A stretch of 64,000 bases of DNA from a virus, in the IMG/VR virus record IMGVR_UViG_3300046463_000520, positions 34,470-98,469 of that record; one strand, given 5' to 3'. The position numbers and the translations under genes are program-made. The notes beneath the pieces were generated by a model that was not told the origin of the DNA, did not search any database, and saw only the letters and a list, made by a program, of their open reading frames with translations. Positions 6,771 through 41,820 of the stretch are shown piece by piece (position 1 is the first letter of the stretch; each line of letters begins with the position of its first letter).

Positions 6771-6813
6771 TAGGAAAACGCACGCCGCCGCACACAAGGC
6801 CGGGCCTGACAAT
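6771..6813 (+). promoter_or_regulatory. Late promoter L1 (darA operon)
   Basis: TAGGAAAACG-N27-GACAAT; ATG lies 7 nt downstream (possibly leaderless). Confidence 0.75.
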
Positions 6814-6820
6814 CGAAGGC

Positions 6821-9538
6821 ATGGACTACTTCGCCTCCCTCTTTCGCGCCGCGCACGCGGGCGCTTACGGCATGAACGCGCTGCCGGAACCGACGCGCGC
6901 GCAGAAAGACGCGGGCGACTACGCGAAGGGCCGCATTGACTGGCGCGGCCTGACCATCGCCATCGAGAACCCGCGCGGCTCGCTGCGCCGCTGGCACGCC
7001 GACGACGGCACGAGCGGCGAGAACCTTCAATTGGCGCACTACGGCTATTTCGAAGGCATCGACGGCGCGGACGGCGACGAAATGGATTGCTACGTCGGAC
7101 CCTACCCGGAAGGCGACCGGGTTTTCGTCGTGAATCAGTTCGTGCGCGGCGCGTTTGACGAACACAAGGTCATGGTCGGATTCGTGGACGAGCGCACCGC
7201 GCGCGCCGCGTATCTCTCGAACTTCAAACCGGGCTGGCCCGGCCTGCAAAGCATCGTGGCCTGCACTGCCGGGCAATTTATCGAATGGGCGCGCAACGGC
7301 GATCACACTGCGCCGCTCACGCCGGAACAACTCTCCAACGGGAAAGACATGGAAAAGGTACTTTGGGATAGCGCGGAACTGCCGCAACCGCGCGGCGCGA
7401 GCCTCGCGCAAGTGCTGTATGCGATTCGCGCGCACGACGGCGCGGACGGGCTGTGTTTCGACCCGCTGACCGCCGCCGACATTCTCGAAGACTCCGACGG
7501 CGTTTTGGCGATGGACGCGCTTGTCACGGTCTATCGCAAGCTCGAATTTCAAATGAACGTGCTGCGCAAGCTGCTCGACCGTGTGGGCGGCGCGCTCACC
7601 GTGTCGGCGCTTCAGATTACCGACCCGTTCAAGCGGTCCGGCACGACGAACGTCGCGGCGATTTTCGAATTGAGCGACGGTCAAACCGTGTCGATTTTCT
7701 TCCACAATCCCGACGTCACGCCGCAGAAAATCATGCCGGGCGACGAACTCGTGTCGTGGAAATGGGTGCTCAACAAGAAAGACATTACGCTCGTCGTCGC
7801 ACCGGAACGCGGTCGCGATCTGAACGTGCGCAATGTCGCCGCGCGCGTCATGCAACTGGCATCGAAGAATTCCGCCCGTTTCCAGACGGCGAACGGCAAG
7901 CGCGCCGCAACGATGGAAGCGATTGCCTCGCTGAAGACCGAATTCGAGACGAAGACCGAAACACTCAATGGCCTTCTGACCGAAATCACGGAACTGGAAG
8001 CGAAGGTCGCGGCCCTGCCGCCGAAGGTCGAGCCGGTCATCGAGCCTGTCATCGACCCCGCGCCTGTCGAGCCGGTTGAGCCGGTCGTGGAACCCGTTGT
8101 CGAGCCGGTCATCGAGCCGCTTCCGACCGCCGAAGACCCGGATACCTTCGACCCGACCACGGCGGACAACTACGCCAAAATCGCGGGCGACATGGCGAAG
8201 CTGGAGTTTTATCAGGACACGCTCGACGCGATGTTCCAAAGCCGCGTCATCGACATTCGCAACGCCCTGCGCGAACTCGGATGGGAAGGCGAGAAGTATC
8301 AAGCGCTGTCGAAAAACGGCTACACGGCCTTCTTCAAGTTCGAGCGTGTCGGCGCGGGCGCGAACGTCATCGGCCTCGCCATCGGTCTGGAAGGCTTGCG
8401 CATGACCCCGATTCAAGACGACCTGACGCGCACGCCGCTCGAACTCGCTGCCGCCGTCGATGCGCTCGCGCCCGCGCCGGTCGTGGAACCTGTTGTCGAG
8501 CCGGTCATCGAGCCGGTTGCGCCGCACAAGTCAACGCTGATTCTCGCCGCGCTCGTCGCTCAATTCGGCTGGCGCGAAACGGAAAGCCCGCTGTTTCTGC
8601 AAAAGGACGTCGGCGGCGGCGAGCAAGGCGAAACGAACCCGGAAGGCGCGCGGATTGTGAATGCGCGCTTTGATGACACGTCGCGCTACATCGAACTGCA
8701 ATCGGGCTTTGCAACCGTGTTCGATATGGACACGCGCGACGGCGGCGATGCGCAAGCTGTTGCGGCGACGTTCAATGCGCGCGTCGCGGCATGGGCCGAT
8801 AGCACGGCCATTGCGCCGACGCCGATCCCGGAACCGACCCCGGAACCGGTCGCGCCGCAAGTGCCGGACAACGTTCGCAAGCGCGTACAGATTGCGCTCG
8901 ATACGCTGAAGGACATTCGCGAGTCGCTCGACAACGCCGTGACGCTCGAAGCGAAGGTCGGCGAGTCGGGCCGCTATCAGGCGGATACGCTCAACAATCG
9001 CCGGGCGGAAATCGACCGCTCGCAGGCGACGCTGGCGACGTTCCGCGAGACGGCGGCAAAGCTCGGCATCGACGCCGATGCGTTCATTGCATCGCTTGGC
9101 GGTGAGCCGGACCTGACGCCTAGCGCGCAAGCCGCCGACTGGCTTGCGGGCGAAGCTGAACGCACGCGCATCGCCGCCGAAGCGGAAGCCGCACGCCTCG
9201 AAGCGGAACGTGTCGCCGCCGAACAAGCCGCGAACGAAGCCGCCGCGCGCATCGCCGAAGCGGAAGAAGCCGCCCGCCGCGAAGCCGAAGAAAAGACCGC
9301 GCGCGAAGCTGCCGAAGCGGAAGCTGCCGCCGCTGCGTCGCGCGTCGCCGACGAACTCGCCTTCGTTGCGCGCGCCGCTGCCGGGCAGGAAGACTTTATG
9401 GTTAAGGACGTGACCGACCGCCTCGCAGAAATCGCGAAGACCGCTGAAGCCGGTACGGAACTCGCTGGCCTGCTCGCGCAAGCGAAGACCGCCGCGAAGA
9501 ACGCATTCATTGCGGCATTCAAGGCGAAGGTGGGCTAA
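6821..9538 (+). CDS. darA: DarA-like head/anti-restriction protein with N-terminal inorganic-pyrophosphatase-like domain
   Basis: IENPRGS..HYGY..G.DGD..DCYVG..FDEHK (polyvalent-protein InPase domain); FELSDGQTVSIFFHNPD..SWKW.LNKKDIT (DarA N domain); QDTLDAMFQSRV..RNALRELGW (DarA C domain). Confidence 0.8.
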   Translation: MDYFASLFRAAHAGAYGMNALPEPTRAQKDAGDYAKGRIDWRGLTIAIENPRGSLRRWHADDGTSGENLQLAHYGYFEGIDGADGDEMDCYVGPYPEGDRVFVVNQFVRGAFDEHKVMVGFVDERTARAAYLSNFKPGWPGLQSIVACTAGQFIEWARNGDHTAPLTPEQLSNGKDMEKVLWDSAELPQPRGASLAQVLYAIRAHDGADGLCFDPLTAADILEDSDGVLAMDALVTVYRKLEFQMNVLRKLLDRVGGALTVSALQITDPFKRSGTTNVAAIFELSDGQTVSIFFHNPDVTPQKIMPGDELVSWKWVLNKKDITLVVAPERGRDLNVRNVAARVMQLASKNSARFQTANGKRAATMEAIASLKTEFETKTETLNGLLTEITELEAKVAALPPKVEPVIEPVIDPAPVEPVEPVVEPVVEPVIEPLPTAEDPDTFDPTTADNYAKIAGDMAKLEFYQDTLDAMFQSRVIDIRNALRELGWEGEKYQALSKNGYTAFFKFERVGAGANVIGLAIGLEGLRMTPIQDDLTRTPLELAAAVDALAPAPVVEPVVEPVIEPVAPHKSTLILAALVAQFGWRETESPLFLQKDVGGGEQGETNPEGARIVNARFDDTSRYIELQSGFATVFDMDTRDGGDAQAVAATFNARVAAWADSTAIAPTPIPEPTPEPVAPQVPDNVRKRVQIALDTLKDIRESLDNAVTLEAKVGESGRYQADTLNNRRAEIDRSQATLATFRETAAKLGIDADAFIASLGGEPDLTPSAQAADWLAGEAERTRIAAEAEAARLEAERVAAEQAANEAAARIAEAEEAARREAEEKTAREAAEAEAAAAASRVADELAFVARAAAGQEDFMVKDVTDRLAEIAKTAEAGTELAGLLAQAKTAAKNAFIAAFKAKVG
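8081..8515 (+). repeat. Two 39-bp direct repeats (8081-8119, 8477-8515) encoding PVVEPVVEPVIEP linkers
   Basis: CCGGTCGTGGAACCYGTTGTCGAGCCGGTCATCGAGCCG, one mismatch between copies. Confidence 0.85.
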
Positions 9539-12938: not shown

Positions 12939-12967
12939 GCGGACGGGGCAAAAGGCCCCGCCAAGCA

Positions 12968-13010
12968 TAGGAAAACGCCGGGCGGATTGAGCAAAACCGC
13001 ACTCGACAAT
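12968..13010 (+). promoter_or_regulatory. Late promoter L2 (darB)
   Basis: TAGGAAAACG-N27-GACAAT. Confidence 0.8.
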
Positions 13011-13043
13011 CAGAGTGCGGCTAACTCAACCTCCCGGCGATAA

Positions 13044-16000
13044 ATGACCACTCTTATTCTCGATGACGCCTCCAATGGAATGGCGTCAGACCTTGCGCGG
13101 CTGAAGCTCGCACGCGAAGGCAAGACGCTCCTTCAAGAGCGCGAATCCCTCACCGCGAGCGCGGCGGACACGATCCGCAAGCTGAAAATCGGCAAGCGCA
13201 TTCGCGAGATTGTCGAAGCCTTGGGCCTGCGCCCTGCCGCGAAGAAGCCGGACGCCGCGCCTGTCGCGGTGCGCACGGAACCGACCGGCGAGTTTTACCC
13301 CGACGAGGGTAAGCGCACGACCGGACAACGCCAGAAGGCGAACGACGCCGCTATCGCGCTCATGCGCGAGATTCAGGCATCGGGCCGCGCCGTGACCGAC
13401 GAAGACCGCGCGATCCTCGCGAAGTATTCCGGCAACGGCGGCGGGCTTGTGGGCGCGGACGGCAAGACCGGAAGCCCGCACGAATACTACACGCCGAAGG
13501 AAGTCGCGGGCGCGATGTGGAACCTGCTGGCCGAACTCGGCTTCAATGGCGGCTCCGTGCTCGATCCGTCGTCGGGCACCGGTATTTTCACTTCGATGCG
13601 CCCGAAATCGGCAGTCATGTCGCAAGTGGAACTCGATCAGACGTCGGGCACCATCAACGGACTCGTCAACAACGGCCCGACGGTCACGACCGCCGTATCG
13701 CCCTTCGAAGCGTTCGCCAACGACACGCCCGACGAGATTTATGACGCGGTTATCACCAACGTTCCGTTCGGCGACCGCACCAAGCGCGGCGGCAATGAAA
13801 AGCTCGACTCGCGCTTTCAGGATGAATCGCTCGAAGGCTACTTCGTGCAGCGCGCGCTTCAGAAGGTCAAGCCGAACGGCTTGGCGGCGTTCATCGTGCC
13901 GAAGGCGGTCGTGTCCGGCTTGGGTTCCCGCGACGTCAAGCTGCGCACGAACTGTTCGCTCATGGCCGAATTCGTCGGCGCGTACCGCCTGCCGAATTCC
14001 ATCTTTACGACCGCCGCCGCCGACGTGACGACGGACCTGATTGTGTTCCGCAAGTTCTCGCGCGAGACGCGCCGCAAGGTCGAAGAACTCGAAGCGCAAA
14101 GCCCGGCCACGCTGAAGGACGCCAACATTCTGTGGGAGCCGTTCGTGTCCGGCGCGTTCTTCAAGACCGTGGGCCGCAAGTACATTCTCGGCGAAGAAGG
14201 CACGACCAAGGGCAAATACGGCGAAGTCGCCGCCGTCATCAATACCGATTCGATCAGCAACATCGTCAAGCTGATTAAGCGCTTCCCTGACTCCCATATC
14301 AATTGGGAACTGCTCGACATGGTTCCGACCGCGCCGATCACGTACACGGACGGCGACACGATCAATAAGGACGGCGCGACGCTCGAAATGCGCGACGGCG
14401 AATGGGTCGTGCTCGACTCCGCGCAGGCCGCAAGCAAGACGGTGCTCGACTTGGCAGACAAGCTCTCGCGCCCGCTCGCGGCGGTCAATTCGCGCGTCAC
14501 GTTCGCGCAGGCAGGCGAATACGTCGATGCGATGCAGAACGCCGGGCGCTTTTGGGACGTCGGCGCATGGCTGACGGGCACGGTTAAGACCGTGGCGACG
14601 CTCGCAGAGTCGGAGCGTGAAACGTGGTGGCAAGCGATCACCGCAGGCATGGCCGTGCAGGAATTGCTGTCGGAAGCCGATTCCGTCGAGCCGCAGAACT
14701 ACGTCACCGCATACCCGGAACTGGCCGCGCAACTCGCGAAGGTCGAGCGCTACGCCACGCGCACCGTCGGCAAGGCCGCAAAGCTCGTGAAGGACGGCCT
14801 GCTGTCGATTCAGAACGCACGGCGCAAGGGCGAATTCACCGCGCTCTGGAAGGGCGAAATCCTCGCCAACGTGCAGGACCGGATTCTGTCGCCGACGCAG
14901 ATTTATGAGAAGGCGCGCTATGAGAACGAAGACGAAACCGGCTTCGTGTCTGTCTCGAAGCTGCGCGAAGCCATGTCGGACTTCGACCCGCTCGAAGACG
15001 ACGACTGGTGTATGGGCGCGGACGGCGAAACCGTCATGCACGCGAACGACTATTACACCGGCTCGTATGGCCGCTTCCTGAAGCAAGCGGAAGCCGACCT
15101 TGCCGCCGCGACGGACCCGCGCGTGCGCGCGAAAATCGCCCGGCAAATGGACCGTGCGAAGGAACGTATCAGCGTGGTGGACGTCGCCGACATGACGTTC
15201 AATCTGTTCACGCCGCACGTCACGATGGCGCAAAAGCTCGAATTCCTGAAGACCTATGTGTCGGTTGATATTTTCATCAACGACAAGGGCGAATTCGATA
15301 TCAAGCAGTCGAATCCGGGTAAGTACGCCAGTGCCGAAGAAATGGCCGCGTACAAAGCCATGCAGCGCTTCGTGAAGTCGTATCTGAAGAACCAGACGAT
15401 TACGACGATGACGAAGCAAGCGGACGCCGAAGCGAACCCCGCTGCGGAAGCCGCTTTGATGCGCCGGATTAAGGACATTACGGACCGCGCGAAGGCACAG
15501 TTCGATTCGTGGGCGCGCGCCAACGACGAGATTCAGGCGTCGCTGCATCAAAAGCTGAACGACCCGGAAAACCTGAAGTTCATCGAAGTGCCGGACGGCA
15601 CGCCCTTGGACATTCCGAATCTGAACGTCGAAGACTTCGAGCCGCACGCCTACCAGTACGCCGCCTGCCGCCGCTACGCCCGTCATTTCGGCGGCGTGCT
15701 CGGCTTCGATGTGGGCCTCGGCAAGACGTTGACGGCGCTCGCCGCGACGCAGTACGCGCAGTCTATCGGCGTGAAGAAGAAGACCATTTTCGTGGTCCCG
15801 AATGCCACGCTCACGAACTGGCAGAAGGAAGCGGGCAAGGCGTATCTGAACACGGACGACTGTCTGTTCGTCGGCGTCATCACGGACAAAAAGGGCAAAA
15901 AGAAGGTCGATAACAACCAAGTCAAAATCGACTTGAACACGATCCGCGAAAACCGTCATGCGAAGATTTTCATGACGATTGAAGCATTCAAGCAGATTCC

Positions 16001-19000
16001 CCTGCGCGAAGAAACGCTCGACGCCTATGTCGAATACCTCGCGCACCATGACGACGCCTATTCGGTCGAGAACGACAAGAGCAAGACGGAAAGCATCAAG
16101 CAGGACTCCCTGCTCGCGGAAGCGAAAGACTTGGGTTCGAAATCGGGCGCGCTGCCCTACTTCGAAGACTTGGGCGTGGATTCGCTCGTGCTGGACGAAG
16201 CGCACAACTACAAAAACTCGAAAGTCACGAGCGCGGAATTTACCGGCGCGAAATACCTGTCGGACCCGCAGAAGTCGCAACGCGGCATGGACATGCAGGC
16301 GAAGGCGTGGTTTGTCCGTGGTCTGTCGGACCGTGGCGATGGCGTGGTTTCGCTGACCGCGACGCCCGTCACGAACTCGCCGCTCGAAGTCTATTCGATG
16401 CTCACGCTCGCGCTTGGCGAAGAAGAAGTCAACAACATGTACGGCGTGACCGGCGCGGACACGTTCATGGCGGCGGCGTGCGATATCGAAGAACGCGAAG
16501 AAGAAAACATCGTCGGCAAATTCACCGCGACGCGCACCTTTACCGGCTTGCAGAACGCGGGCCTGCTGCGCCGCCTGCTCCAGACGTCGTGCCTGATTAA
16601 GACGGCGGAAGACGTGAAGGCGGACGGCGTGGATATCCGCGTGCCGCAGGCCGAAGAAATCTCGACGGCGGTCGATATCGGGCCGGACAACTTCGCGACG
16701 CTCATCGCCTACAAAAACGAGTACATGGAAGCGGTCAAGCTCGTGAAGGCGGGCGGCGGCGGACCGGACGACAAGCTCACGGCGTCACCGTTCAACCTGA
16801 TTCGAAAGATGACGAAGGTCATCAACGACCCGGAAATGGACAAGGGCGTGTTCGTCTTCAAGTTCTCGGACGACGAGAAAGAAGGCGCGCTCAAGGCCCT
16901 GCTCGCGTTCAACAAGAAGAAGGTCAAGGAAATCCGCGACACGCTCGACCCGATGCTCGGCAAGGAATTCGTCACGGAAAAGAGTGTGCGTGACACGGTA
17001 ACGGGCGATTTCGTCGTCCAATACAACACGACCATTCAGGCGTTCGCCGCGACCGATGCGAACGGCGACAACGAAATCCGCCTGCCGTCCACGGAATACG
17101 AGACGCAGGAAGCGCTTATCAAGCTGCTCGAAGCCGAAGGCGTGAAGCCGCGCGTGAAAATCTCGCCGAAGCTCGCCGCCGTCATCGCGAACGTGAAGAA
17201 AGAAGCCGCGTACCCGCGTCATATGGGCCACGCCAAGCAAATCATTTTCTGCGACGAACTCGGCCTGCATCCGAAAATCCGGCTCGCGCTCGCGCAGGAA
17301 GTGGGCGTTCCGCTGTCGAAAATCAAGATCGTCAATGCGGTCGCGGTTGACGTCGCGGGTATGCAGGACGTGCAGGACGGTTTCAACGCCGACGGCGAAG
17401 AAAACCGCTACGAATACGTCATCGCCAACAAAAAGGCCGAAGTCGGTATCAACCTGCAAAAAGGCTGTCAGGCTATCCACCATATGACGATTGGCTGGAC
17501 GCCGGACTCGACGCACCAACGCAACGGGCGCGGCGTGCGGCAGGGCAACACGGTCGAGAAGGTCATGGTGTATCACTACGATGCGAACGGCACGTTCGAC
17601 GCCTACAAGCGCAAAATCGTGGATATCAAAGCCGACTGGATTGGCGCGCTCATGTCGGGCGACTCGCAGAAAATCAAGATCGAAGGCGACATGTCCGCCG
17701 CCGATTACGAACTGCTCGCGAACGCCGTGGGCGACGCTGAAGCGATGGAAACGGCAAACAGGGCCATCGCCGACCGCGCCAAGCGCGAAAAGATTCAGGC
17801 CGCGCGCGTGCAGCAAATCCAGTATGTGCGCACCATCGAAGGCGCGAACGTATGGCTCAACAAGTTCGGCGTGACCGGCGAAGACGAGACGAGCGGCTTC
17901 AATGCTTGGGTCAACTCGAAAATCGCGAGCATCCGCGCGCAGGTTTCCATCATCGCCGATATCAAGACGCGGCAGGATGAAACCGAAAGCGACTTGATGC
18001 GCGCGCGGCTGGCGAAGAAGTACGCCGAAGAACGCCCGAAGCTCGACGCGGCCCTGCTCGTCATCGGCGGACTCGCAACGCCGGGCAAAATCCCCGCCGA
18101 ACGCACGTATCGCTCCACGCTCACGGACGAAGACCGCGCATCCGCCGCCTATGCGAACTGGAAGAAGGAACTGACGTTGCGCACGAACATGCGCGACGAC
18201 TCGCGCCGCGCCTTCCTTCAGCGCTCGGAAGACGGCTATACGGTCGATTCGCTCGACGCGCACGCGCGCGGCGAAGCGGCGGTCGTCATGGGTACGCTGG
18301 TTCGTATCGGCTCGTTTGTCGAGAACGGCGACGCGCTGCTGGTTGTGCGCAGCGGCAAGAATCGTCAGGCGGGCAACCTGTACGGTTACAACCCGGCTGA
18401 CCAAAGCGAAATCGAACTGCTGAAAATCGCCAAGCCGGTATTCACGGACAAGGGTTCCGCGCGCTGGCGCTCGCTGGTTGAACAGGCCGTGCGCATGGAC
18501 GAAGCGACCATTGCCGATAGCGATTTCGGCGGCGCGTATGGTGCGAGCGATCCGCGCCTGTACATGTCGATGGTCGAAGACGTGCGCGACGCGATCAGCG
18601 TGCCGGTTCCGTCGGCCCCGCTCTCGAAGTCGTCGTTCTCGTTCAAGCGCCCGTACTTCCCTATCGTGCTCGATGACTTGACCGGCGAAAGCGGCGGCGC
18701 GCTGGCGAAGCGCATCCGTGCGGAACAAATCGACCTGCTCGACTTGGCGAAGGGCAACAAGTGGAACGTCGTGCCGCGCGACACGCGCACCATCGGGCCG
18801 TCGCTCGATATCAACGTGCGCACGCAATCCGAAGCGATCCGCGAGTATGCGGTGGCGCACAATCTGCGCGCGACCGAAGACGACCTGTACGCGATCAATA
18901 GCGGGCTTGGCACGCGCAACGTGGTCGATCAGCTTGGACTGCGCGCGCTGTTCTTCAAGTCGCTGCCCGAAGGCGTCGCGGCAAGCAAGACGCCGGACGA

Positions 19001-19880
19001 ACTCGACGTGTGGGCGCTCGCGTGGTTCCGCGCGCAACTCGACTGGCTCGAAGTGTCGGACCTTTCGACGGTGCTTGGCGGGTACATGTCGCAATACCTG
19101 CGCACGCAGGCAAAGATTGACGACGGCACGGAACGATGGGTCAAGCTGATTGAACCGCCGACCTACACTGTGAAGGACGCGGCGCTGGCGGCGCTCGAAA
19201 CGGCGATCAAGGGCGGTTTTCTGGTCGATGAAATCATCGGCGAGAACGGCGGCAACGCCTACCCGATGCCGTATCTGCCGGGCGGTTTCCTGTCGAGCGG
19301 CGCGGGCCGGAAAGTCGCCGAACTGCTGTGCGAACAGGTCGGCGAATATATCGAACTGAAGGTCGGCGCGGACAAGGTGCGCTCGCTCAACGGGTACGGC
19401 TCGAACATTCGCCTGTATTACGACAATTGGGGCGATGCCGTGACGCTGGTTGCAAGCGTGTTCTCGGACCGCTGGAAATCGCTGGTTCAGTGGGCGCAGT
19501 CGGTTGAGAAGGTGCGCGCAGCGGACAAGGCAGGCACGGACGTGCCGGGCATTCTCGCCGCCCTGCGCCGGATGCCGGGCGTGCTGTCGGCGGACGTCGG
19601 CACGGTCGAAGCGCGCGAGAAGCGTTACGGCTCGAAGGGGTTCTATACCTACGTGCCGGGCACGTATATCCTGCTCGGCATTTCGCGCGGCTCGTCGCTG
19701 CACGATAAGGTCGCGACGAAGGGCGACGCGGGCTTGCATGGCCGCACGTTCGACCGCGAAACGAACTGCTTCCGCATCACCATCGCCGACGGCGAGAAGT
19801 GGAGCGACGGCGTAGCGGTCGCATCGGTCGATAGTCTGTTCGCGCACATCGGGCAAAACATCGCCGACTATAAGCTGTAA
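13044..19880 (+). CDS. darB: DarB-like N6-adenine methyltransferase / SNF2 helicase anti-restriction protein
   Basis: EYYTP, VLDPSSGTG, NVPF (MTase); VGLGKT, DEAH, TATP, GINLQ, QRNGRGVRQGN (SF2 helicase); 2278 aa. Confidence 0.9.
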   Translation: MTTLILDDASNGMASDLARLKLAREGKTLLQERESLTASAADTIRKLKIGKRIREIVEALGLRPAAKKPDAAPVAVRTEPTGEFYPDEGKRTTGQRQKANDAAIALMREIQASGRAVTDEDRAILAKYSGNGGGLVGADGKTGSPHEYYTPKEVAGAMWNLLAELGFNGGSVLDPSSGTGIFTSMRPKSAVMSQVELDQTSGTINGLVNNGPTVTTAVSPFEAFANDTPDEIYDAVITNVPFGDRTKRGGNEKLDSRFQDESLEGYFVQRALQKVKPNGLAAFIVPKAVVSGLGSRDVKLRTNCSLMAEFVGAYRLPNSIFTTAAADVTTDLIVFRKFSRETRRKVEELEAQSPATLKDANILWEPFVSGAFFKTVGRKYILGEEGTTKGKYGEVAAVINTDSISNIVKLIKRFPDSHINWELLDMVPTAPITYTDGDTINKDGATLEMRDGEWVVLDSAQAASKTVLDLADKLSRPLAAVNSRVTFAQAGEYVDAMQNAGRFWDVGAWLTGTVKTVATLAESERETWWQAITAGMAVQELLSEADSVEPQNYVTAYPELAAQLAKVERYATRTVGKAAKLVKDGLLSIQNARRKGEFTALWKGEILANVQDRILSPTQIYEKARYENEDETGFVSVSKLREAMSDFDPLEDDDWCMGADGETVMHANDYYTGSYGRFLKQAEADLAAATDPRVRAKIARQMDRAKERISVVDVADMTFNLFTPHVTMAQKLEFLKTYVSVDIFINDKGEFDIKQSNPGKYASAEEMAAYKAMQRFVKSYLKNQTITTMTKQADAEANPAAEAALMRRIKDITDRAKAQFDSWARANDEIQASLHQKLNDPENLKFIEVPDGTPLDIPNLNVEDFEPHAYQYAACRRYARHFGGVLGFDVGLGKTLTALAATQYAQSIGVKKKTIFVVPNATLTNWQKEAGKAYLNTDDCLFVGVITDKKGKKKVDNNQVKIDLNTIRENRHAKIFMTIEAFKQIPLREETLDAYVEYLAHHDDAYSVENDKSKTESIKQDSLLAEAKDLGSKSGALPYFEDLGVDSLVLDEAHNYKNSKVTSAEFTGAKYLSDPQKSQRGMDMQAKAWFVRGLSDRGDGVVSLTATPVTNSPLEVYSMLTLALGEEEVNNMYGVTGADTFMAAACDIEEREEENIVGKFTATRTFTGLQNAGLLRRLLQTSCLIKTAEDVKADGVDIRVPQAEEISTAVDIGPDNFATLIAYKNEYMEAVKLVKAGGGGPDDKLTASPFNLIRKMTKVINDPEMDKGVFVFKFSDDEKEGALKALLAFNKKKVKEIRDTLDPMLGKEFVTEKSVRDTVTGDFVVQYNTTIQAFAATDANGDNEIRLPSTEYETQEALIKLLEAEGVKPRVKISPKLAAVIANVKKEAAYPRHMGHAKQIIFCDELGLHPKIRLALAQEVGVPLSKIKIVNAVAVDVAGMQDVQDGFNADGEENRYEYVIANKKAEVGINLQKGCQAIHHMTIGWTPDSTHQRNGRGVRQGNTVEKVMVYHYDANGTFDAYKRKIVDIKADWIGALMSGDSQKIKIEGDMSAADYELLANAVGDAEAMETANRAIADRAKREKIQAARVQQIQYVRTIEGANVWLNKFGVTGEDETSGFNAWVNSKIASIRAQVSIIADIKTRQDETESDLMRARLAKKYAEERPKLDAALLVIGGLATPGKIPAERTYRSTLTDEDRASAAYANWKKELTLRTNMRDDSRRAFLQRSEDGYTVDSLDAHARGEAAVVMGTLVRIGSFVENGDALLVVRSGKNRQAGNLYGYNPADQSEIELLKIAKPVFTDKGSARWRSLVEQAVRMDEATIADSDFGGAYGASDPRLYMSMVEDVRDAISVPVPSAPLSKSSFSFKRPYFPIVLDDLTGESGGALAKRIRAEQIDLLDLAKGNKWNVVPRDTRTIGPSLDINVRTQSEAIREYAVAHNLRATEDDLYAINSGLGTRNVVDQLGLRALFFKSLPEGVAASKTPDELDVWALAWFRAQLDWLEVSDLSTVLGGYMSQYLRTQAKIDDGTERWVKLIEPPTYTVKDAALAALETAIKGGFLVDEIIGENGGNAYPMPYLPGGFLSSGAGRKVAELLCEQVGEYIELKVGADKVRSLNGYGSNIRLYYDNWGDAVTLVASVFSDRWKSLVQWAQSVEKVRAADKAGTDVPGILAALRRMPGVLSADVGTVEAREKRYGSKGFYTYVPGTYILLGISRGSSLHDKVATKGDAGLHGRTFDRETNCFRITIADGEKWSDGVAVASVDSLFAHIGQNIADYKL

Positions 19881-23077: not shown

Positions 23078-23103
23078 GCCCCGCTCGCGCGGGGCTTTTT
23101 TTT
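23078..23103 (+). terminator. Rho-independent terminator
   Basis: GCCCCGC-TCGC-GCGGGGC followed by T8. Confidence 0.85.
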
Positions 23104-23115: not shown

Positions 23116-23158
23116 TAGGAAAACGCGCGGGCGTCTTGCGGCGCGCGGCGGCGACACT
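23116..23158 (+). promoter_or_regulatory. Late promoter L3 (portal)
   Basis: TAGGAAAACG-N27-GACACT. Confidence 0.8.
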
Positions 23159-28976: not shown

Positions 28977-29019
28977 TAGGAAAACGCAAAGGGGTCATCG
29001 CAAAAACGCCTTCGAGAAT
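28977..29019 (+). promoter_or_regulatory. Late promoter L4 (tail tube operon)
   Basis: TAGGAAAACG-N27-GAGAAT. Confidence 0.8.
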
Positions 29020-29053
29020 GGGTTTGCAAACTTCCATTCATTCGGGCGAAAAG

Positions 29054-30106: not shown

Positions 30107-30984
30107 TGATCGTCGTGAAAGACGTGCGCGGCGACATGATGCTGAAGGCAACCCTTCGGCATGACCTAGCGCCTATCCCGCTCACCTTCGAAGGCGTGTT
30201 CCGCACGACGACACAGACCGCCGCGCAGTTTAAGGACGGCGCGGTGCTCGTCGTGAATGACGTGCCTATGCGCATCGTGAAGGCCGTTCCGCAGCATATG
30301 GCGGACGGCGGCGTGCAGGGTAAAGAGCCGTTTTCGGGCACGCATGTCACGGCGTTCCCTGACGGCCTGCAAGCGCTCGCGCTGCCGCGCACGGCGGCGG
30401 CGATTTTCACCAACGGGTCACTGGCGGGCGCATATCGCGGGTGCGGCGGCACGGTCCCTGTGCAGGGCGATTTCCAGCTTGACCTGTTCTCGTGTCACGT
30501 CGGCGAGATTCCGACCTTCGCCATCGCGCGCGCTTTGCAGGAAATGGGCGGCGTGGTTATGTGGCGCGGCAAGTCGCTGAAGGTCATGCCGTTTCGCGAC
30601 CTGTTCGCCCAGACGCCGGTCACGTCGCTCACGGTCGATTCAAGCGAATCGGTCAACTCCGCGCATCTCGTCGCGGACCAAATACCCGTTTTCTATTCCA
30701 TCGGCCCCGACGGGCAGGTTATCAGCGCGACCCGTAAGGACGCCGCGCAAAAGCTCGCATTCACGCCGCGCAAGACGCTCGCGCAACTCAACGCAATGGG
30801 CCGCGTGCTCGTGAATCGCCGGGCCGTGACGACCACGCTCAATCCCTCACTGCGTGCGGGCGACATGCTCAACGTGCAGGGCACGCCAATGGTTTTGATG
30901 ACGGTCGCTCACCACTTGGATAACGGCTCGGACGGCGGCGGCGGTTCTCAATACACGCGCGTTTGGCTTGGAGTGCTCTCGTGA
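30106..30984 (+). CDS. Baseplate hub protein (P1 gp6-like)
   Basis: LRHDLAPIPLTFE; precedes the spike gene. Confidence 0.6.
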   Translation: MIVVKDVRGDMMLKATLRHDLAPIPLTFEGVFRTTTQTAAQFKDGAVLVVNDVPMRIVKAVPQHMADGGVQGKEPFSGTHVTAFPDGLQALALPRTAAAIFTNGSLAGAYRGCGGTVPVQGDFQLDLFSCHVGEIPTFAIARALQEMGGVVMWRGKSLKVMPFRDLFAQTPVTSLTVDSSESVNSAHLVADQIPVFYSIGPDGQVISATRKDAAQKLAFTPRKTLAQLNAMGRVLVNRRAVTTTLNPSLRAGDMLNVQGTPMVLMTVAHHLDNGSDGGGGSQYTRVWLGVLS

Positions 30985-31583
30985 TTGGACTCATGCCCGG
31001 TTTCATCGACACGGTAAGCACGGACGACCGGGGCGCGCGCATGTACCGCGTGCGCATTCCCGGCTTGACCGATGGCGCAAGCGAGCAACCGCGCGCCGAA
31101 CTGCTCAACCCTATCGGCGACAAGTCGGAACACACGGAAATCCGTATCAAGCCGGGCGACCGGATATGGCTCGCGTTTCAGGGCGGCGATACGCGGCATC
31201 CGGTCATCGTCGGATACCGCCCGCGCAATCAGGAAAACGCAATGGATTGGCGGCGATTCGAGCACGCAAACTTTGAATTCAACGCGGACAACGTTTTTCA
31301 GGTCATCGCCGGGACGCAGGTTCATATCAAGACGCCGCTCGCTTACGTCGAAGCTCCGAACTCGCACATTACGGGCGACGTTCAGATTGACGGCAGCGCG
31401 ACCGTGAATGGCTTGCTGACCTACAAGGGCGGCATGAAGGGCAGCGGCGGCAGCGGTGCATCCGCGCAGATTGACGGCGGCATTGAAGCGACGGGCGATA
31501 TCAAGGCCGGAAACATCAGTCTCGAAGGCCACGCACACATGGAACAAGGCGACGGCAACCGGGTCGGCCCGCCGATCCCGTAA
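30981..31583 (+). CDS. Baseplate spike (gpV/gp5-like)
   Basis: RVRIPGLT..GDRIW..F.GGD..PVIVG OB fold; C-terminal HAH (HxH) tip. Confidence 0.85.
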   Translation: MIGLMPGFIDTVSTDDRGARMYRVRIPGLTDGASEQPRAELLNPIGDKSEHTEIRIKPGDRIWLAFQGGDTRHPVIVGYRPRNQENAMDWRRFEHANFEFNADNVFQVIAGTQVHIKTPLAYVEAPNSHITGDVQIDGSATVNGLLTYKGGMKGSGGSGASAQIDGGIEATGDIKAGNISLEGHAHMEQGDGNRVGPPIP

Positions 31584-31594
31584 AGGACAACGAA

Positions 31595-32105: not shown

Positions 32106-32183
32106 TAGGAAAACGCAACGGCGCGCATTGAAAAGTGCCGCTGAAAATGAAGGCTCAAAGATAAGTACGGGGTTCCGTGCTTT
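32106..32183 (+). promoter_or_regulatory. Late promoter L5 plus 5' hairpin (major capsid operon)
   Basis: TAGGAAAACG-N27-GAAAAT; AAGTACGG-GGTT-CCGTGCTT hairpin. Confidence 0.8.
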
Positions 32184-32216: not shown

Positions 32217-33860
32217 ATGAACGGAACTCAAAACCGTAAGTACACGCTGTCCGATCAGCGCGAAGTCGAAAACTTCGTGCATGGCGTGGCGAACGCCGAA
32301 GGCAAGCCGGGCATGTTGCTCGACTCCGCCGCCGCCGCTGACGCGGGCATGGCCGCTGCGAAAGAATCGGGCAACCTGCCGACCGCGCTGAACGAACTGC
32401 TTGGCGTGACGAGCGTCGAAGAACAGAAGATCGTCAAGGCGATTTTCGACGGCGTGAATGTGTTCCAGCGCGAGCACGGTTTCATGCCGTCGGGCGACTT
32501 GCTGCTGACCGCCATCGACCAAGCCAAGTCGATTTACGACTCGGCAACGAACAACCATCACGATCAGATTTCGCTCACGCCGAACGCGCCTATCGTCGCG
32601 ATTCTTGGCGCGCTCGCTGAAGCCTGCCCGTTCGCCGGTTATTTGGCTGCGGACAGGGGTTCGAACGAAGCACGCCTAATCATCGTGTCGCACCAAGCCG
32701 GTTCGAACTGGGGCGGCTACAAGCAAGGCAACTTGATGGACGGTATCGCGCAAGGCGAATCGTTCATGGGTTCCTCGCGCACGAAATCGCTGTCGGCACC
32801 GAACGACACGGCGAACTACAAGGTCACGTTCTACGACGGCGAAGACGGCAGCGGCGAAGTGCTGACGATGCTGCGCGGTCGCACCATCGTGTACGTCAAC
32901 GGCATGATTGCCGTGCAGGAAATCCAGAACGGTTCGAGCACGGCAGCAAGCGTGCCGCTCATGGGCGGATGCACCATCGGCGGCGTCGATTACGCGCTCA
33001 CCGGCACGGTCAAGCCCGCGTCGGGCGAAGTGGTCGTCACGCCGGGTTCCGCCCTGCCCGCTGGCACGGTCGTGACCATCGAAGTGGCCGTGGACTACGA
33101 AACGCGCCCGGAAAAGACGCCGAAGATGCAGGTTCAAGCGCAGGTGTTCCAACTGTTCGCGAACCCGTTCCGCGTCACGTACCAAGTCACGCCGGAAGCT
33201 CGTTCGCAGTTCTCGAACGAAGTCGGCGTCGATGCAGGCGCAGAAGCGATGATGGCCGTTCGTGGTCAGTATTCGATGGAACGTCATTACGACGCGCTGA
33301 AGAAGGCGAAGATGATTGGCGCATTCCAAGGCAAGTGGGAATACGACTTCGACTACGACAACCAGATTCAGCAAAAGACCCGCGCGCAAATCCTTCAGGA
33401 TTTCGCATCGGTGCTCGGCATGGCGTCGCAAGCGATGGCCGAAGCGACGGCTGACCACGGCATCACGCACATGTACGTCGGCAAGTTCGTGGCCGCACTG
33501 TTCCGCTCGCTCGACGCGACGCTGTTCCAGTCGTCGGGCCTCACGGACCGTCCGGGCATTTTCCGTGTCGGCAAGCTGTTCGGCGTGTACGAAGTCTATT
33601 ACTCGCCGAAGGTCGTCAACGAAGCCGCCGACGGTTCGACATCGGAAATCATCTGCGTGGGTCGTTCCACGCAGACGGCGCGCTGCCCGATCATCATGGG
33701 CGACGCCTCGGCTCCGATGTTCGAGCCGCTCGGCACGACGGAAACCCTCAAGACCGGCTACGGCTTCAACGCCCGTTCGTTCAACCGCGTCAACCCGCAC
33801 GCAATGTCGGCTGTCGGTTGCACGGTTATCACGGTGAAGAACCTGCAAAAAGCGGCGTAA
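32217..33860 (+). CDS. Major capsid protein (P1 gp23-like)
   Basis: 547 aa, strong codon bias, precedes sheath; propeptide-like N-terminus. Confidence 0.8.
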   Translation: MNGTQNRKYTLSDQREVENFVHGVANAEGKPGMLLDSAAAADAGMAAAKESGNLPTALNELLGVTSVEEQKIVKAIFDGVNVFQREHGFMPSGDLLLTAIDQAKSIYDSATNNHHDQISLTPNAPIVAILGALAEACPFAGYLAADRGSNEARLIIVSHQAGSNWGGYKQGNLMDGIAQGESFMGSSRTKSLSAPNDTANYKVTFYDGEDGSGEVLTMLRGRTIVYVNGMIAVQEIQNGSSTAASVPLMGGCTIGGVDYALTGTVKPASGEVVVTPGSALPAGTVVTIEVAVDYETRPEKTPKMQVQAQVFQLFANPFRVTYQVTPEARSQFSNEVGVDAGAEAMMAVRGQYSMERHYDALKKAKMIGAFQGKWEYDFDYDNQIQQKTRAQILQDFASVLGMASQAMAEATADHGITHMYVGKFVAALFRSLDATLFQSSGLTDRPGIFRVGKLFGVYEVYYSPKVVNEAADGSTSEIICVGRSTQTARCPIIMGDASAPMFEPLGTTETLKTGYGFNARSFNRVNPHAMSAVGCTVITVKNLQKAA

Positions 33861-34471: not shown

Positions 34472-36106
34472 ATGTCTTTCTATCCGCATACTCGTGCCCT
34501 TGGCGCGCAGTCGGGCGTGCAACTGAATCCGGTCCGTGACAACACGGATGGGTTCGTGACGCAGGCGACCGATCAAACCGTTGCATTCGCTGGCCGCTTC
34601 TCGCGCGGGCGAATCGACGCACCTTTCAAAATCAACCGCGCGAATATCAAGCGCAAGCTCGGCGCTCCGCAGTCGATCCGCGTGTCGGCACTCAACGAGT
34701 GCTATGTGCAGGTCTATGAAGCCGTGAATAACGGCGCGCGCGAAGCGGTCATTTCCCGTCTGTCGGTTGCGGGCGCGACGAACAAGTTCGCCGTGTTCAA
34801 TATCGACGTATCGGGCATCGGCTCCTTTACCGCCGCCGATACCGCGCCGACGGGAAGCTATGTCTTCTATCTGAAGGACATGGAATGCTTCAACGACGGC
34901 GTTCTGTTCGAAGTCAACGCGCTGAAGAACCTCGACGCGACCAACACGGCTATCGCGACCAAGCGCATCACCCTGCGCATCAAGGAACCGGACGGCACGC
35001 TTCGCTACGAAGTCACCGGCTCGCTCGATGACGGCGCGAAGGACGAATACGGTCAGGACGATTCGCTCGTCGCACGTTTGGCCGCTATCGCCCAATCGAA
35101 CATCAGCATTGTCTGCGCACAGACCGTGAGCATTGCGACGTCGGCTGAGTGCTACGGCAAGGCATCGGACGGCACGACGAAGCTCTCGAAGAACGCCGCC
35201 GCGCTCGTGCTGTTCTCCGAAGGTGGCACGGCGTACACGTCGGACGACTATGACCGCGCATTGGCCGCGCTCGAAAAGAGCACGCTCGATTACGGCTATG
35301 CGTCGTCGGGCGGCTCGCAATCGATCCCGCTGATTTCGAAGCTGGCGACGCTGAACATGCGCGCAAACCGCAACATGGCGATTGACGTGCCGGGCGACCT
35401 GTCGCCTGCCGCCGCCGCTACGTGGGTCGCGCAACTCGGCATTACCGGCGCGAACGCGCACCTGATTTCGTTCTATTGGGCACCGCTGCGCACGGACGAC
35501 CCGCTGAACGGCGGTCGCGCGGTCATCGGCACGTCGGGCCTGCAATTGGGCTTCCGCTGCGGTCGCAACGCACAGACGAACTCGTATGGCTTGTCGCCGA
35601 AGAACTTCCCGATTGCCGGGAAAGATTGGGCTATCAACCGGACCGGCATCGAACAACTGTCCAACCCCGACGAATTCCAACTGTCGGACTTGGCTGAAGC
35701 GCAAATCAACCCGGTCATTTTCCAGACCTATAACGGCGGCTCCGGCTTCGTGTTCTTCGACTCGCTCACGGCGGCGAAGACCAATGGCTATCGCAAGCTG
35801 ATTTCGGTCGCGGAAATGTCTTCGTCGCTGGACGACATGATTGCCAAGCAAGCCAAGGCAAACATGCAACTGCCGATGGACATTTCGATTTCGCGCACGG
35901 AAAAGTGGATCAAGGCATTGCTTGGCGGCGCGCGCTCGTCGGGCTGGCTGGTTGCATCGAACGATCCGGCGCTTGGCGAACAAGGCTGGGTCGTGAGCGT
36001 CACGCGCAACGCACAGCGCCCGTCGGACCGTATGGATATCGCCTACGGCGCGCATTACGACGGCGTGAATCGCGCGACGTACATCCAACAAACCATTTCG
36101 GCATAA
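34472..36106 (+). CDS. Tail sheath protein (P1 gp22-like)
   Basis: GRFSRGRIDAPF N-terminus, INPV, YDGVNR C-terminus; 544 aa. Confidence 0.8.
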   Translation: MSFYPHTRALGAQSGVQLNPVRDNTDGFVTQATDQTVAFAGRFSRGRIDAPFKINRANIKRKLGAPQSIRVSALNECYVQVYEAVNNGAREAVISRLSVAGATNKFAVFNIDVSGIGSFTAADTAPTGSYVFYLKDMECFNDGVLFEVNALKNLDATNTAIATKRITLRIKEPDGTLRYEVTGSLDDGAKDEYGQDDSLVARLAAIAQSNISIVCAQTVSIATSAECYGKASDGTTKLSKNAAALVLFSEGGTAYTSDDYDRALAALEKSTLDYGYASSGGSQSIPLISKLATLNMRANRNMAIDVPGDLSPAAAATWVAQLGITGANAHLISFYWAPLRTDDPLNGGRAVIGTSGLQLGFRCGRNAQTNSYGLSPKNFPIAGKDWAINRTGIEQLSNPDEFQLSDLAEAQINPVIFQTYNGGSGFVFFDSLTAAKTNGYRKLISVAEMSSSLDDMIAKQAKANMQLPMDISISRTEKWIKALLGGARSSGWLVASNDPALGEQGWVVSVTRNAQRPSDRMDIAYGAHYDGVNRATYIQQTISA

Positions 36107-36115
36107 GGAACAGTC

Positions 36116-38661: not shown

Positions 38662-38698
38662 CCGCCGTTGTTTCACTGACCTTAGAACAGGGCTTCAC

Positions 38699-39566: not shown

Positions 39567-40198
39567 ATGTAACGCTCGCGCAACTGCGAAAGCTCGCGCC
39601 CACGTCATCGGCCCCGCTCGCGGATTGGGTCGCGCCGCTCAATGCGGCGATGGCCGAATTCGGCATCACGACCGAACAACGCATCGAAATGTTCCTCGCG
39701 CAGATTCTTCACGAGTCGCGGGGCCTCTCTGCGCTCGTTGAAAACCTCAACTACAGCGCGGAAGGTTTGGCGCGGACATGGGACCGCTACAGCGCGAGCG
39801 GCAAGCGCGGCGGTGCGCCCAATACGCTCGCACAGAAGCTCGCGCGCCGCCCGGAAGCCATCGCCAACAACGTGTATGCGAATCGGCTTGGCAACGGCTC
39901 GGAAGCGGGCGGCGAAGGGTTCATGTATCGCGGGCGCGGTCCGATCATGACGACCGGCAAGGCGAACTATCAGGTCATCGAAAACCGCCTGTCGATTCGC
40001 TGCGTGGCGAATCCCGACCTGCTCACGCATCCGCTCGAAGGCTCGCGCGCGGCGGCGTTCTTCTGGAAGTCGCACGGCCTGAATGAAGTCGCCGATACCG
40101 GCGCGTTCAAGGCGACGACGAAGGTCATCAACGGCGGCGACATTGGCGGCGCGGAACGTATCGGCTTGTGGGAACTCGCGAAGGTGGTCATCGCATGA
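39563..40198 (+). CDS. Endolysin, glycoside hydrolase family 19
   Basis: MFLAQILHES..ENLNYS..YRGRG..TGKANY..INGG. Confidence 0.9.
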   Translation: MNVTLAQLRKLAPTSSAPLADWVAPLNAAMAEFGITTEQRIEMFLAQILHESRGLSALVENLNYSAEGLARTWDRYSASGKRGGAPNTLAQKLARRPEAIANNVYANRLGNGSEAGGEGFMYRGRGPIMTTGKANYQVIENRLSIRCVANPDLLTHPLEGSRAAAFFWKSHGLNEVADTGAFKATTKVINGGDIGGAERIGLWELAKVVIA

Positions 40199-40773
40199 AC
40201 GACATTACGAAAGGGCACGCGCTGCACGACACGATGACTGTGGACGTCAATGTGCCGGAACACGAAAAGCGCGAGACGACGGCACTGTTTCGCCGCACGC
40301 GCGAACTGCTGATTGCGCGCGAGCATGGCCGCTGCTTTGTCTCGCGCAGGACCGCCGCGCAACTTGGTCATCCGCTCGAAGCGCATCACCATCCCATCGA
40401 ACGCTCGATGGCGGAAATGATTGATTGGGACCGCTTTTCACTCGACGCGAAGAAAGGCATGTACGGCCCGCACGCCGCCGCGTTCGATTGGGAAGGCTTC
40501 TTCGAAGGCGCGACGATGCAGCGCGTCGAAGTGCCTGCGACCGACGACGAAGAAGCCTACACGGTCACGATGCGCATTCCGCGCGACCCGTATCTGTTCG
40601 TGGATGACATGACCGTCAACGGCCTGTTGCTCGGGAAGGACTATCACACCGGCAACGACGAAGGCATTCACCGACTTCCCTATCCGCTTTGGCTTGCGCG
40701 CGTGTACGGGCGGGAAGGCTACGTTTTTTCGAGCGTAGAGACGATTCACAACGCGCGCTTTCAACCTGAATGA
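40195..40773 (+). CDS. His-rich HNH-like hypothetical protein
   Basis: LEAHH..IE, N..LL...H...GIH.LPYP.W; Zn ligands partly degenerate. Confidence 0.45.
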   Translation: MNDITKGHALHDTMTVDVNVPEHEKRETTALFRRTRELLIAREHGRCFVSRRTAAQLGHPLEAHHHPIERSMAEMIDWDRFSLDAKKGMYGPHAAAFDWEGFFEGATMQRVEVPATDDEEAYTVTMRIPRDPYLFVDDMTVNGLLLGKDYHTGNDEGIHRLPYPLWLARVYGREGYVFSSVETIHNARFQPE

Positions 40774-40781
40774 GAAAAACC

Positions 40782-41312
40782 ATGAAACCTCTGCATCACA
40801 TTCTGCTGTTCGTGGCGCTCGTCATCGGCGGCGCGCTTCTCACTCTGTCCGGCTGTGCTGCGCCCGTCACGCCGTCCGCGCTCGTCGCCGCTGCGCCGGT
40901 ATCGGCGAGTGCCGCCGCGCCCGCTGTAGCGCCCGCCACGCCCGCCGCCAGTGCGAAAGTGCAGGCGCTTGCCGCGACCATCGACCGCCAATGTCGTATC
41001 GGCCTGCCGTTCATGCAATCGCTGCTCGCGCTGCAAACCGATCCGGGCGCGGTCGCGCTCGTGACGAAGACGCAAGCCGATGCCGTGAAAGTCTGCGCGG
41101 TTGCCGCGACACTGGCCGCGCCGCCCTTCGGCGTATCCACACTGCCAACACTCGACCTAGCCGCGATCAATGCCTTTGCCGCGCAGCGTGTGCCCGACCT
41201 ACTTGTGCTCGTGAAGAACTCGAACCTGTCAGACACACAGAAGACCGCCGCGACCCTCTCGATTACCGGCGCGCAACTCGTGCTACTGACGGCCACGGCG
41301 GGCGGGCTGTAA
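40782..41312 (+). CDS. Lipoprotein (spanin-like candidate)
   Basis: Lipobox LSGC; in lysis cassette. Confidence 0.55.
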   Translation: MKPLHHILLFVALVIGGALLTLSGCAAPVTPSALVAAAPVSASAAAPAVAPATPAASAKVQALAATIDRQCRIGLPFMQSLLALQTDPGAVALVTKTQADAVKVCAVAATLAAPPFGVSTLPTLDLAAINAFAAQRVPDLLVLVKNSNLSDTQKTAATLSITGAQLVLLTATAGGL

Positions 41313-41752
41313 TGGGCCGCTTCGTCACGCTGCTGAAGGTCGAGCCTGCATCGGCTTTTGACGGGCAGGAATGGCGGCTTCTCGACAAGCTCGTGTTCGT
41401 GTCGGACGTCGCCGGGCGCATCGTCGTGCCTGCCGGGTTCGTGACGAATTTCGCGAGCGTGCCGCGCGTGCCGGTCATCTATGAACTGACCGGCAACACG
41501 TCGAGCATGGCCGCGACCGTGCATGACTACCTGTACACCACGCACGCCGTTTCGCGAGACGTCGCGGACGCGGTGCTGCGCGAAGCATCGGAAGCAACGA
41601 AGGTTCCGGGCTGGCGTCGCTGGATCATGTGGGCGGGCGTGAGAGTCTTCGGCGGCTCGCATTGGGGCACTGCCGCGACCGACAACAGTCCGGCCCGCGA
41701 GAAGGCCGCACACGCGCCCGACGAAACGCAGGTCATCTACGCGCGACCGTAG
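41312..41752 (+). CDS. DUF1353 family protein
   Basis: VPAGFVTNFASVPR..AATVHDYLY..ADAVL..W.GVR.FG. Confidence 0.85.
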   Translation: MGRFVTLLKVEPASAFDGQEWRLLDKLVFVSDVAGRIVVPAGFVTNFASVPRVPVIYELTGNTSSMAATVHDYLYTTHAVSRDVADAVLREASEATKVPGWRRWIMWAGVRVFGGSHWGTAATDNSPAREKAAHAPDETQVIYARP

Positions 41753-41820
41753 GAAAACGCAAACGCGCCTTTCGAAAAGTGCCGCTGAGACTGAACGCCG
41801 AAGTACGGGGAACCGTGCTT
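41750..41820 (+). promoter_or_regulatory. Late promoter L6 plus 5' hairpin
   Basis: TAGGAAAACG-N27-GAGACT; AAGTACGG-GGAA-CCGTGCTT hairpin. Confidence 0.8.

Follow-up and report, generated by a model that had tools for sequence, protein, structure and literature searches.

A conserved bipartite promoter class, probably activator-dependent, precedes the late operons of a P1-related phage-plasmid

The DNA analysed here (the window) is a stretch of 64,000 nucleotides (nt), corresponding to bases 34470-98469 of the 98,469-base-pair (bp) circular contig IMGVR_UViG_3300046463_000520, which has a 105-bp terminal overlap. The element is a temperate P1-type myovirus, distant from P1, that lives as a plasmid. 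It was found that its virion and late operons are headed by a bipartite signal, composed of an 11-nt conserved unit, TAGGAAAACGC (the box), and a hexamer with the consensus GAnAAT placed 26 nt downstream of it. This promoter class is real and is conserved in the phage family. The sites are probably activator-type late promoters, in which a -10 element without a -35 element is combined with a box at about -44.

Eleven sites were aligned with the hexamer taken as -12 to -7. The box then occupied -49 to -39, with its core GGAAAA 29 nt upstream of the -10 element and its centre at about -44. The conserved positions of the hexamer were -11, -9, -8 and -7; A-11 and T-7 were present in 11/11 sites and were likewise kept in relatives. 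The original prediction, which was made from the letters of the window, had described a G at the first -10 position and the lack of a common -35 element. Both features were borne out: G-12 was present in 9/11 sites, the information at -35 to -30 was zero, and a generic two-hexamer scan found no such promoter at the box sites. No dyad symmetry was found in the box and its flanks. We infer that transcription would start about 7 nt past the hexamer. The fixed upstream box lies where a class-II-type activator would sit, close to the place near -45 that had been proposed for an activator. Readings as other promoter types were also considered. An extracytoplasmic function (ECF)-type reading, with GGAAAAC as the -35 and a -10 element 16-17 nt later, was rejected because that place is unconserved, and sigma54 and sigma32 patterns were rejected by eye.

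A weak second copy, AAAAcGCC, was observed 22 bp downstream of the box at about -23 to -16 (an A-run with CGcC at -24 to -16). It was also present in the related genome G001 but absent from Xanthomonas phage Rb1. A role of AAAAcGCC as a general second half-site was rejected because Rb1 has no copy; it is at most lineage-specific.

The copies of TAGGAAAACG previously reported at 6771, 12968, 23116, 28977, 32106 and 41750 were all exact, as were the hexamers 27 nt after each of them (GACAAT, GACAAT, GACACT, GAGAAT, GAAAAT and GAGACT, in this order). The six spaced sites are therefore real, but the count of six copies was incomplete, since the window contains 8 exact copies of TAGGAAAACG. The two extra ones, at 56636 and 59829, have no -10-like hexamer at a gap of 27 nt (N27). 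All 8 are on the + strand; 0.04 copies were expected, and 8 were reached in 0/100 shuffles. In the whole contig, exact TAGGAAAACG occurs 12 times, always on the + strand, and AGGAAAAC occurs 17 times on + and 0 times on -. As GANAMT has a frequency of 9e-4 per position in the window, six matches at exactly N27 are not due to chance. When the whole contig was scanned with a profile of box plus hexamer, 12 sites scored >23, all on the + strand, and the maximum in 20 shuffles was 18.6. One of these 12 has a variant box (AAGGAAAACC...GACAAT) and lies upstream of a gene for a protein of 1061 amino acids (aa). Another site, TAGGAAAACA...TAACGT ahead of terS/terL, scored 17.6, which is within the shuffle range, and was counted by position only.

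The profile sites were all intergenic or at gene junctions. Together with the weaker terS/terL site, they lie upstream of darA-, darB-, prt-, tube-, 23/22-, bplA-, fibre- and pac-like genes. This agrees with the earlier view that the signals head virion or late operons, namely those of the DarA-like, DarB, portal, tube, capsid and beta-helix genes. Virion and packaging genes were assigned with PHROG, Pfam and tblastn; they encode DarB-like (2278 aa) and DarA/DdrB-like proteins, portal, Pro, a Sit-like transglycosylase, tube, sheath, capsid (gp23-like), baseplate, gp25, gp5, Hdf and PacB. The P1 genes matched in the contig by tblastn were pacB, bplA, pro, 25, darA, ddrB, darB, prt, tub, 5, hdf, 23, 22 and hrdC, and about 14 virion and packaging genes are common to the phage and P1. 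The contig (G+C content of 61.9%, 91% coding) also contains a lambdoid cI/cro region, recombination genes, a Rep_3 replicon, ParA/ParB and nin-like genes. Its host is probably Paraburkholderia or Burkholderia. Homologues of a 263-aa helix-turn-helix (HTH) protein encoded in the window, described below, are labelled Paraburkholderia, Caballeronia and Cupriavidus. The nearest named relative is plasmid pBVIE05 of Burkholderia vietnamiensis G4, the sole plasmid match of a 24-kilobase (kb) megablast; megablast of the 24 kb against a phage collection gave no match.

The recurrence of the pattern in related genomes, which the original prediction had called for, was observed. Upstream of the portal gene, the box, the spacing of exactly 27 nt and the hexamer were kept in 9 relatives with portal identities of 94-67%, while the spacer diverged; the majority fractions were 0.92 for the box, 0.76 for the hexamer, 0.63 for the spacer and 0.51 for the upstream flank. 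A relative represented by a metagenome-assembled genome (61% portal identity) has TAGGAAAAAG-N27-GACAAT. Conservation of box, spacing and hexamer beside a diverging spacer points to a functional bipartite promoter. Box-plus-hexamer sites numbered at least 10, on one strand, in G001 (94 kb), about 6 in G002 and 3 in G003, and the reversed control pattern gave 0. Plasmid pBVIE05 has 6 sites of the form nnGGAAAACG with a looser 5' flank, mostly at N28 to the hexamer, which is a lineage-wide one-base shift over several promoters. The exact N27 spacing thus holds at the six sites first reported and at the portal gene in the 9 relatives, but it is not universal.

More distant relatives showed the same arrangement. 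The cultured Xanthomonas phage Rb1 (91 kb, with DarA/DarB-type cargo and a cI/CII early region) has 9 GGAAAA-N28/29-nAnnnT sites on the + strand and 0 on the - strand, and these precede protease, capsid, internal-head, baseplate and fibre genes. In Pseudomonas relatives, TTCGGAAAG-N29 was found in pPRS08-11306 and GCGCAAASC-N28 in pKF715C. The geometry is kept across genera, whereas the sequence of the box varies from lineage to lineage. In the whole class, G or C is a common first base of the -10 element. A scan of IMG/VR with the pattern AGGAAAACGC-N26-GANAAT gave, beyond the family, mostly single, chance-level matches.

These data bear on what kind of signal the sites represent. If they were not promoters but RNA-level signals for translation or processing, recombination or packaging sites, or Chi-like oriented sequences, the strict strand bias would fit, and two copies do overlap ribosome-binding positions (the one at 56636 and that at the terL stop/start junction). 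Such an explanation is nevertheless very unlikely. The distance from site to start codon varies from 40 to about 110 nt, whereas the distance from box to hexamer is fixed; the sites come after terminators and before operons; the hexamer co-varies in register among relatives; and a Chi-like or packaging signal needs neither intergenic placement nor a -10 partner.

We consider it just as hard to believe that box and hexamer form a promoter for a phage sigma factor or RNA polymerase, although the bipartite signal is highly invariant and a G as first -10 base is unusual. A six-frame search of the contig gave no match to Sigma70_r2 (PF04542), and the matches to Sigma70_r4_2 (PF08281) were merely sub-threshold HTH matches, in cro-like and ParB-like genes. 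No RNA polymerase domain was found in the large unknown open reading frames (ORFs), which carry collagen, esterase and collar domains. Moreover, a gap of 26-27 nt fits no known sigma factor, and the hexamer retains A-11 and T-7, which are critical for sigma70.

Another alternative dispenses with a dedicated activator: the A-tract box would act like an UP element and be contacted by the alpha-subunit C-terminal domain of the host polymerase, and the timing would come from repressor loss, gene dosage or anti-termination. The proximal subsite of the E. coli UP element (-46 to -38) would include the four A's of the box (about -45 to -42); several late boxes also adjoin repressor-operator-like motifs. 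UP elements are, however, degenerate and A/T-rich, whereas in the box the flanking G, C and T (TAGG....CGC) vary as little as the A's. The change of the box to GCAAASC in one Pseudomonas relative, with the spacing unaltered, would be expected of a specific protein that co-evolves with it rather than of the conserved alpha subunit, and single-base precision of spacing is atypical of UP elements. This alternative is therefore regarded as improbable.

For the preferred reading, that of activator-type late promoters, the best candidate for the activator is the 263-aa HTH protein. Its gene closes a nin-like operon of YbcO, DUF1064, zinc-finger and DUF1367 genes, at whose end no other sizeable DNA-binding protein is encoded. 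The family profile matched ImmR and the 434 repressor (E 2e-5 to 7e-5), with further matches to transcriptional regulators in PHROG. In a Foldseek search with the structural model, the HTH was placed on 434, SinR and ImmR with a probability of 1.00, and no structural match was found for the C-terminal domain. A homodimer formed via residues 168-232 was supported by modelling, with a score of 0.53 compared with 0.00 for the best control; the mark used for this score was reached by 20/30 proteins solved as pairs and by 1/23 solved as single chains. The runs agreed in at least 64% of the contacts, and the predicted local distance difference test (pLDDT) value of the partner was at least 67.

Homologues of the HTH protein were found in G001, G002, G003 and pBVIE05. 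The family is encoded directly or nearly upstream of terS in L160, phage Rb1 and P. putida pKF715C, and after DUF1064 in P. psychrotolerans pPRS08-11306. In the Burkholderia, Xanthomonas and Pseudomonas relatives it therefore keeps a pre-terminase position, which in P1 belongs to lpa. The homology of the Rb1 protein is full-length, covering both the HTH and the C-terminal domain (hhalign 99%, E 1e-17). Counts of 9-mers in loci with distant HTH homologues revealed no clear alternative motif. When the DNA-contact residues were compared by manual register to the 434 repressor, N-S-S/T-Q..Q was found with the box GGAAAAC, N-P-S-K..K with GGAAAAA, Q-C-S-Q..Q with GGAAAG, and G-V-T-Q..L with GCAAASC, the most different box. 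These predicted contacts are consistent with a recognition helix that differs where the box differs. In Rb1 (L169, 690-730), GGAAAA-N29-GATAAT was also observed directly before the HTH gene, with the hexamer over the annotated ATG, an arrangement that would suit positive autoregulation, with translation beginning further downstream at Met9.

The earlier proposal of this XRE protein as the activator has thus gained support from its position, its synteny in three genera, the predicted dimer and the helix-box variation, but the support is circumstantial. That the 263-aa Cro/C1-type protein reads the box is a proposition to which we would give slightly less than an even chance. With somewhat more reserve, we suggest that the family may comprise undescribed activators of late genes that have taken the genomic place of Lpa without being homologous to it. 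A dimer would read an asymmetric box held rigidly 28-29 nt from a -10 element that has no T at -12 and no -35 partner, and box and helix would co-evolve.

It is also possible, though rather doubtful, that the late promoters are activator-dependent but that the box is read by another factor, such as a small phage protein or a host protein, and that the HTH protein is, for example, a lysis-lysogeny or replication regulator. The structural matches in the Protein Data Bank (PDB) were only to a generic 434/SinR-like HTH, a fold typical of repressors, and approximately half of the ORFs have no family assignment. On the other hand, the remaining DNA-binding domains are ill-placed (a cI-like repressor with an S24 peptidase domain, a cro-like 77-aa protein, an H-NS-like protein, and partition and replication proteins), and both the lpa-like position of the HTH family before the terminase genes in three genera and the variation of the recognition helix with the box speak for the HTH protein.

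Several observations weigh against the HTH protein as reader or, more generally, against the activator-type promoters. The asymmetry of the box does not suit a symmetric Cro/C1-type dimer, as predicted here, which normally reads a palindrome; this also favours another reader. The weak AAAAcGCC copy could take the second HTH of the dimer, but Rb1 lacks it. The co-variation of helix and box comprises four lineages only and parallels overall divergence, and the HTH family and the promoter class descend together within one phage lineage, so that finding both does not count as independent evidence. With tblastn, Acinetobacter plasmids gave no HTH homologue; the family may be too diverged there to be recognised, or another protein may read the box. 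The boxes at 56636 and 59829 are not promoters, and a search of G001 gave no counterpart of either. Outside the window (contig 3180-3222), one box shares bases with both the TAG stop codon of terL and the ribosome-binding site of a gene for a 141-aa zinc-ribbon protein; its -10-like hexamer is inside the next ORF, on a conserved Ile-Ile codon pair, and the whole arrangement is kept in G001, pBVIE05, L150, L151, L152 and L154. Finally, the labels 'promoter' and 'late' derive from sequence logic and should be read as predictions.

With these reservations, the following mechanism can be proposed. The host sigma70 holoenzyme would recognise the -10 element but could not use the promoters alone. 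A phage DNA-binding protein from the delayed-early operon would bind the box in one fixed orientation and, at its class-II-like position, would recruit or position the polymerase through sigma region 4 and/or the alpha subunit. Such an activator might also compensate for the G at -12, as had been suggested. About a dozen virion, cargo and packaging operons would in this way be switched on together, and production of the regulator late in the early programme would delay the late genes. In this scheme, both the activator dependence of the promoters and the identity of the activator are what we infer.

The features of the window are listed in Table 1.

Table 1. Predicted promoters, box copies and related features in the window (positions in nt; profile score where available)
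Feature	Position	Strand	Details	Score
Putative DarA-like late promoter	6771..6813	+	box 6771-6781, GACAAT 6808-6813	34.9
Putative DarB-like late promoter	12968..13010	+	box 12968-12978, GACAAT 13005-13010; heads 2278-aa gene 13044-19880	32.2
Intrinsic terminator	23078..23095	+	7 G-C pairs then T8; closes preceding operon, 20 nt upstream of portal box	
Putative portal late promoter	23116..23158	+	box 23116-23126, GACACT 23153-23158; heads portal gene, pro-like and Sit-like genes	
Putative tail-tube late promoter	28977..29019	+	box 28977-28987, GAGAAT 29014-29019; gene ATG likely 29054, end 29557	33.6
Putative capsid late promoter	32106..32148	+	box 32106-32116, GAAAAT 32143-32148; heads capsid and sheath genes	
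Putative late promoter of 306-aa gene (41857-42777)	41750..41792	+	box 41750-41760, GAGACT 41787-41792	31.3
Box without -10 at N27	56636..56646	+	its AGGA 7 nt upstream of HNH gene GTG (56648)	
Weak variant AAGGAAAACGC-N26-GAAAGT	57137..57179	+	function uncertain	24.1
Box without -10, TAGGAAAACGG	59829..59838	+	13 nt before DUF1064 ATG (59852); heads operon ending in HTH gene	
nin-like delayed-early genes	59852..61039	+	DUF1064 resolvase 59852-60331, zinc-finger 60318-60587, DUF1367 60587-61039	
Candidate late activator, 263 aa	61045..61836	+	Cro/C1 (434-repressor-like) HTH at about residues 58-125, helical C-terminal domain	

The site at 6771 heads a 905-aa DarA-like/transglycosylase gene (ATG 6821; similarity to P1 darA/ddrB and in PHROG) and the next two cargo genes. 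The orthologous DarB-like site is kept in G001. The portal gene has its ATG at about 23187 and ends at 24860; besides the portal site, a second site is preceded by a stem and T-run, as read by eye. Downstream of the capsid site are the capsid gene (P1 gp23-like, 32217-33860) and the sheath gene (34472-36106), and the spacer and leader of the 41750 site are paralogous to those of the capsid site.

Inverted repeats were observed close to some of the hexamers. One, CCGCACTC-GACAATCA-GAGTGCGG, encloses the darB -10 element (window 12997-13020) and is present in G001 too; a palindrome, GTTTGCAAAC, lies directly 3' of the tube -10 element (window 29020-29031); and an inverted repeat, ATGGTTCCA...TGGAACCAT, lies 3' of the fibre -10 element (contig 32240-32275, outside the window). 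They may be operator sites or 5' stem-loops. Terminator-like hairpins were also seen in the leaders of the capsid and 41750 promoters (32163-32182 and 41793-41828). The capsid leader contains an 8-bp stem with a T-run at about +15. The 41793 hairpin has a 16-bp stem that starts directly after the -10 hexamer, so that part of the 5' arm would be missing from RNA started at this promoter, whereas read-through RNA would fold into the complete terminator.

The weak variant at 57137 is located in the 3' end of the HNH gene, upstream of a replication-initiator gene (57226), and similar sites occur at the same place in G001 and L150, but inside coding sequence. The position of its AGGA indicates that the 56636 box doubles as the ribosome-binding site of the HNH gene; this box may also be bound by a regulator, or it may be a relic. 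The 59829 box may serve autoregulation, or it may be what is left of a duplicated operator-plus-box cassette.

An operator-like motif, ATAGGnnnnCTGATAT, was found 4 times, at window 53913-53928 and 59800-59815 and at contig 16487 and 26886 (outside the window). Two copies are 7 nt upstream of late boxes, one is in the divergent early region, and the one before the 59829 box has an inverted ATATCAG partner. The motif looks like a prophage-repressor operator that would place some late promoters under dual control, as at P1 LPmat. In addition, CAGGAAAACGC-N27-AAACTT was observed at window 31230-31272, within a 206-aa gene (30963-31583), and at the same coding position in G001, G002, G003 and pBVIE05; the next gene (31595) could have an internal promoter here, or the conservation could be merely at the protein level. 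Within window 42943-63972, one early-region ORF matched the H-NS C-terminal domain (E 5e-11) and another the LydA holin family, and the small ORFs also include a MazE/MazF-like pair and a dUTPase.

In the library that was searched, no relevant publication on the motif or on pBVIE05 was found. P1-related phage-plasmids are common in soil- and plant-associated Proteobacteria, and their regulation is known only from P1; a whole branch has kept the P1 operon layout but has a different late-promoter signal and, it seems, a different activator. With the motif, late operons of this branch, cargo and anti-restriction genes among them, can be annotated from sequence. The motif further offers a compact, probably tightly off, activator-dependent promoter/regulator pair for high-GC hosts, and a natural case of promoter-activator co-evolution that the cultured Rb1 and B. 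vietnamiensis G4 (pBVIE05) make testable. If the HTH protein is the reader, its family would be an activator family serving widespread P1-related phage-plasmids and prophages of Burkholderiaceae, Xanthomonas and Pseudomonas.

The closest known system is that of P1, in which LPs, LPsit, LPdar, LPpro, LP23, LP26, LPpac and others are activated by Lpa (gp10) with host SspA. The annotated P1 record lists eleven late promoters with AAGTGACTT (the '-22 region'), 4 nt and TAnAAT. As in P1, many late operons each have their own -35-less promoter with a box at a fixed spacing from a sigma70 -10 element, and the boxes head counterparts of the LPdar, LPpro, LP23, LPpac and LPs operons. In its position just upstream of the terminase genes (lpa before pacA in P1) and its prophage-repressor-type control, the candidate activator gene also resembles the proven one of P1. 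The signals themselves are different, as had been anticipated: AAGTGACTT-N4-TAnAAT is absent from the phage and is unrelated to the pattern found here, in which TAGGAAAACGC lies 26 nt before the -10 element with its centre at about -44, not 4 nt before it, and the P1 -10 element mostly begins with T, that of the phage with G. The candidate reader is an unrelated Cro/C1-type HTH protein. No Lpa homologue was found when P1 Lpa was compared with the whole contig by tblastn (best E 2.0), and alignment of the HTH family with Lpa by hhalign gave a probability of 0.09%. The P1 operon plan is kept and the late switch is exchanged.

The predicted position of the activator, about -44, is nearly the same as in phage Mu, where Pm with Mor, and the late promoters Plys, PI, PP and Pmom with C, use sigma70, have a poor or no -35 element and bind an activator that overlaps the -35 region with its centre at about -43.5. 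Mor and C bind dyad-symmetric sites as dimers, in contrast to the asymmetric box found here, and Mu has 4 late promoters as against about 12 in the phage. A Mor-family domain is absent: searches of the six frames of the contig gave no match at E <=0.1 to the Mor family (PF08765), nor to Ogr_Delta (PF04606).

At lambda PRM, cI bound to OR2, centred at about -42, performs class II activation by contact with sigma region 4. The candidate shares its DNA-binding fold with lambda cI and with the C proteins of restriction-modification systems, and in all of these the site abuts or overlaps the -35 region. Those proteins, however, read palindromes and act mainly by repression or autoregulation at one or two promoters, whereas the box found here is asymmetric and heads about a dozen late promoters, and the candidate has a C-terminal domain without a structural match. 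A further, weak analogy is with AraC at pBAD, a flexibly linked dimer that binds a strong distal and a weak proximal half-site (I1 and I2), which are direct repeats about two helical turns apart. The strong box with the weak AAAAcGCC copy 22 bp downstream is reminiscent of this arrangement, but AraC belongs to another protein family, and the proximal copy here is in the spacer between -35 and -10 and is absent in Rb1.

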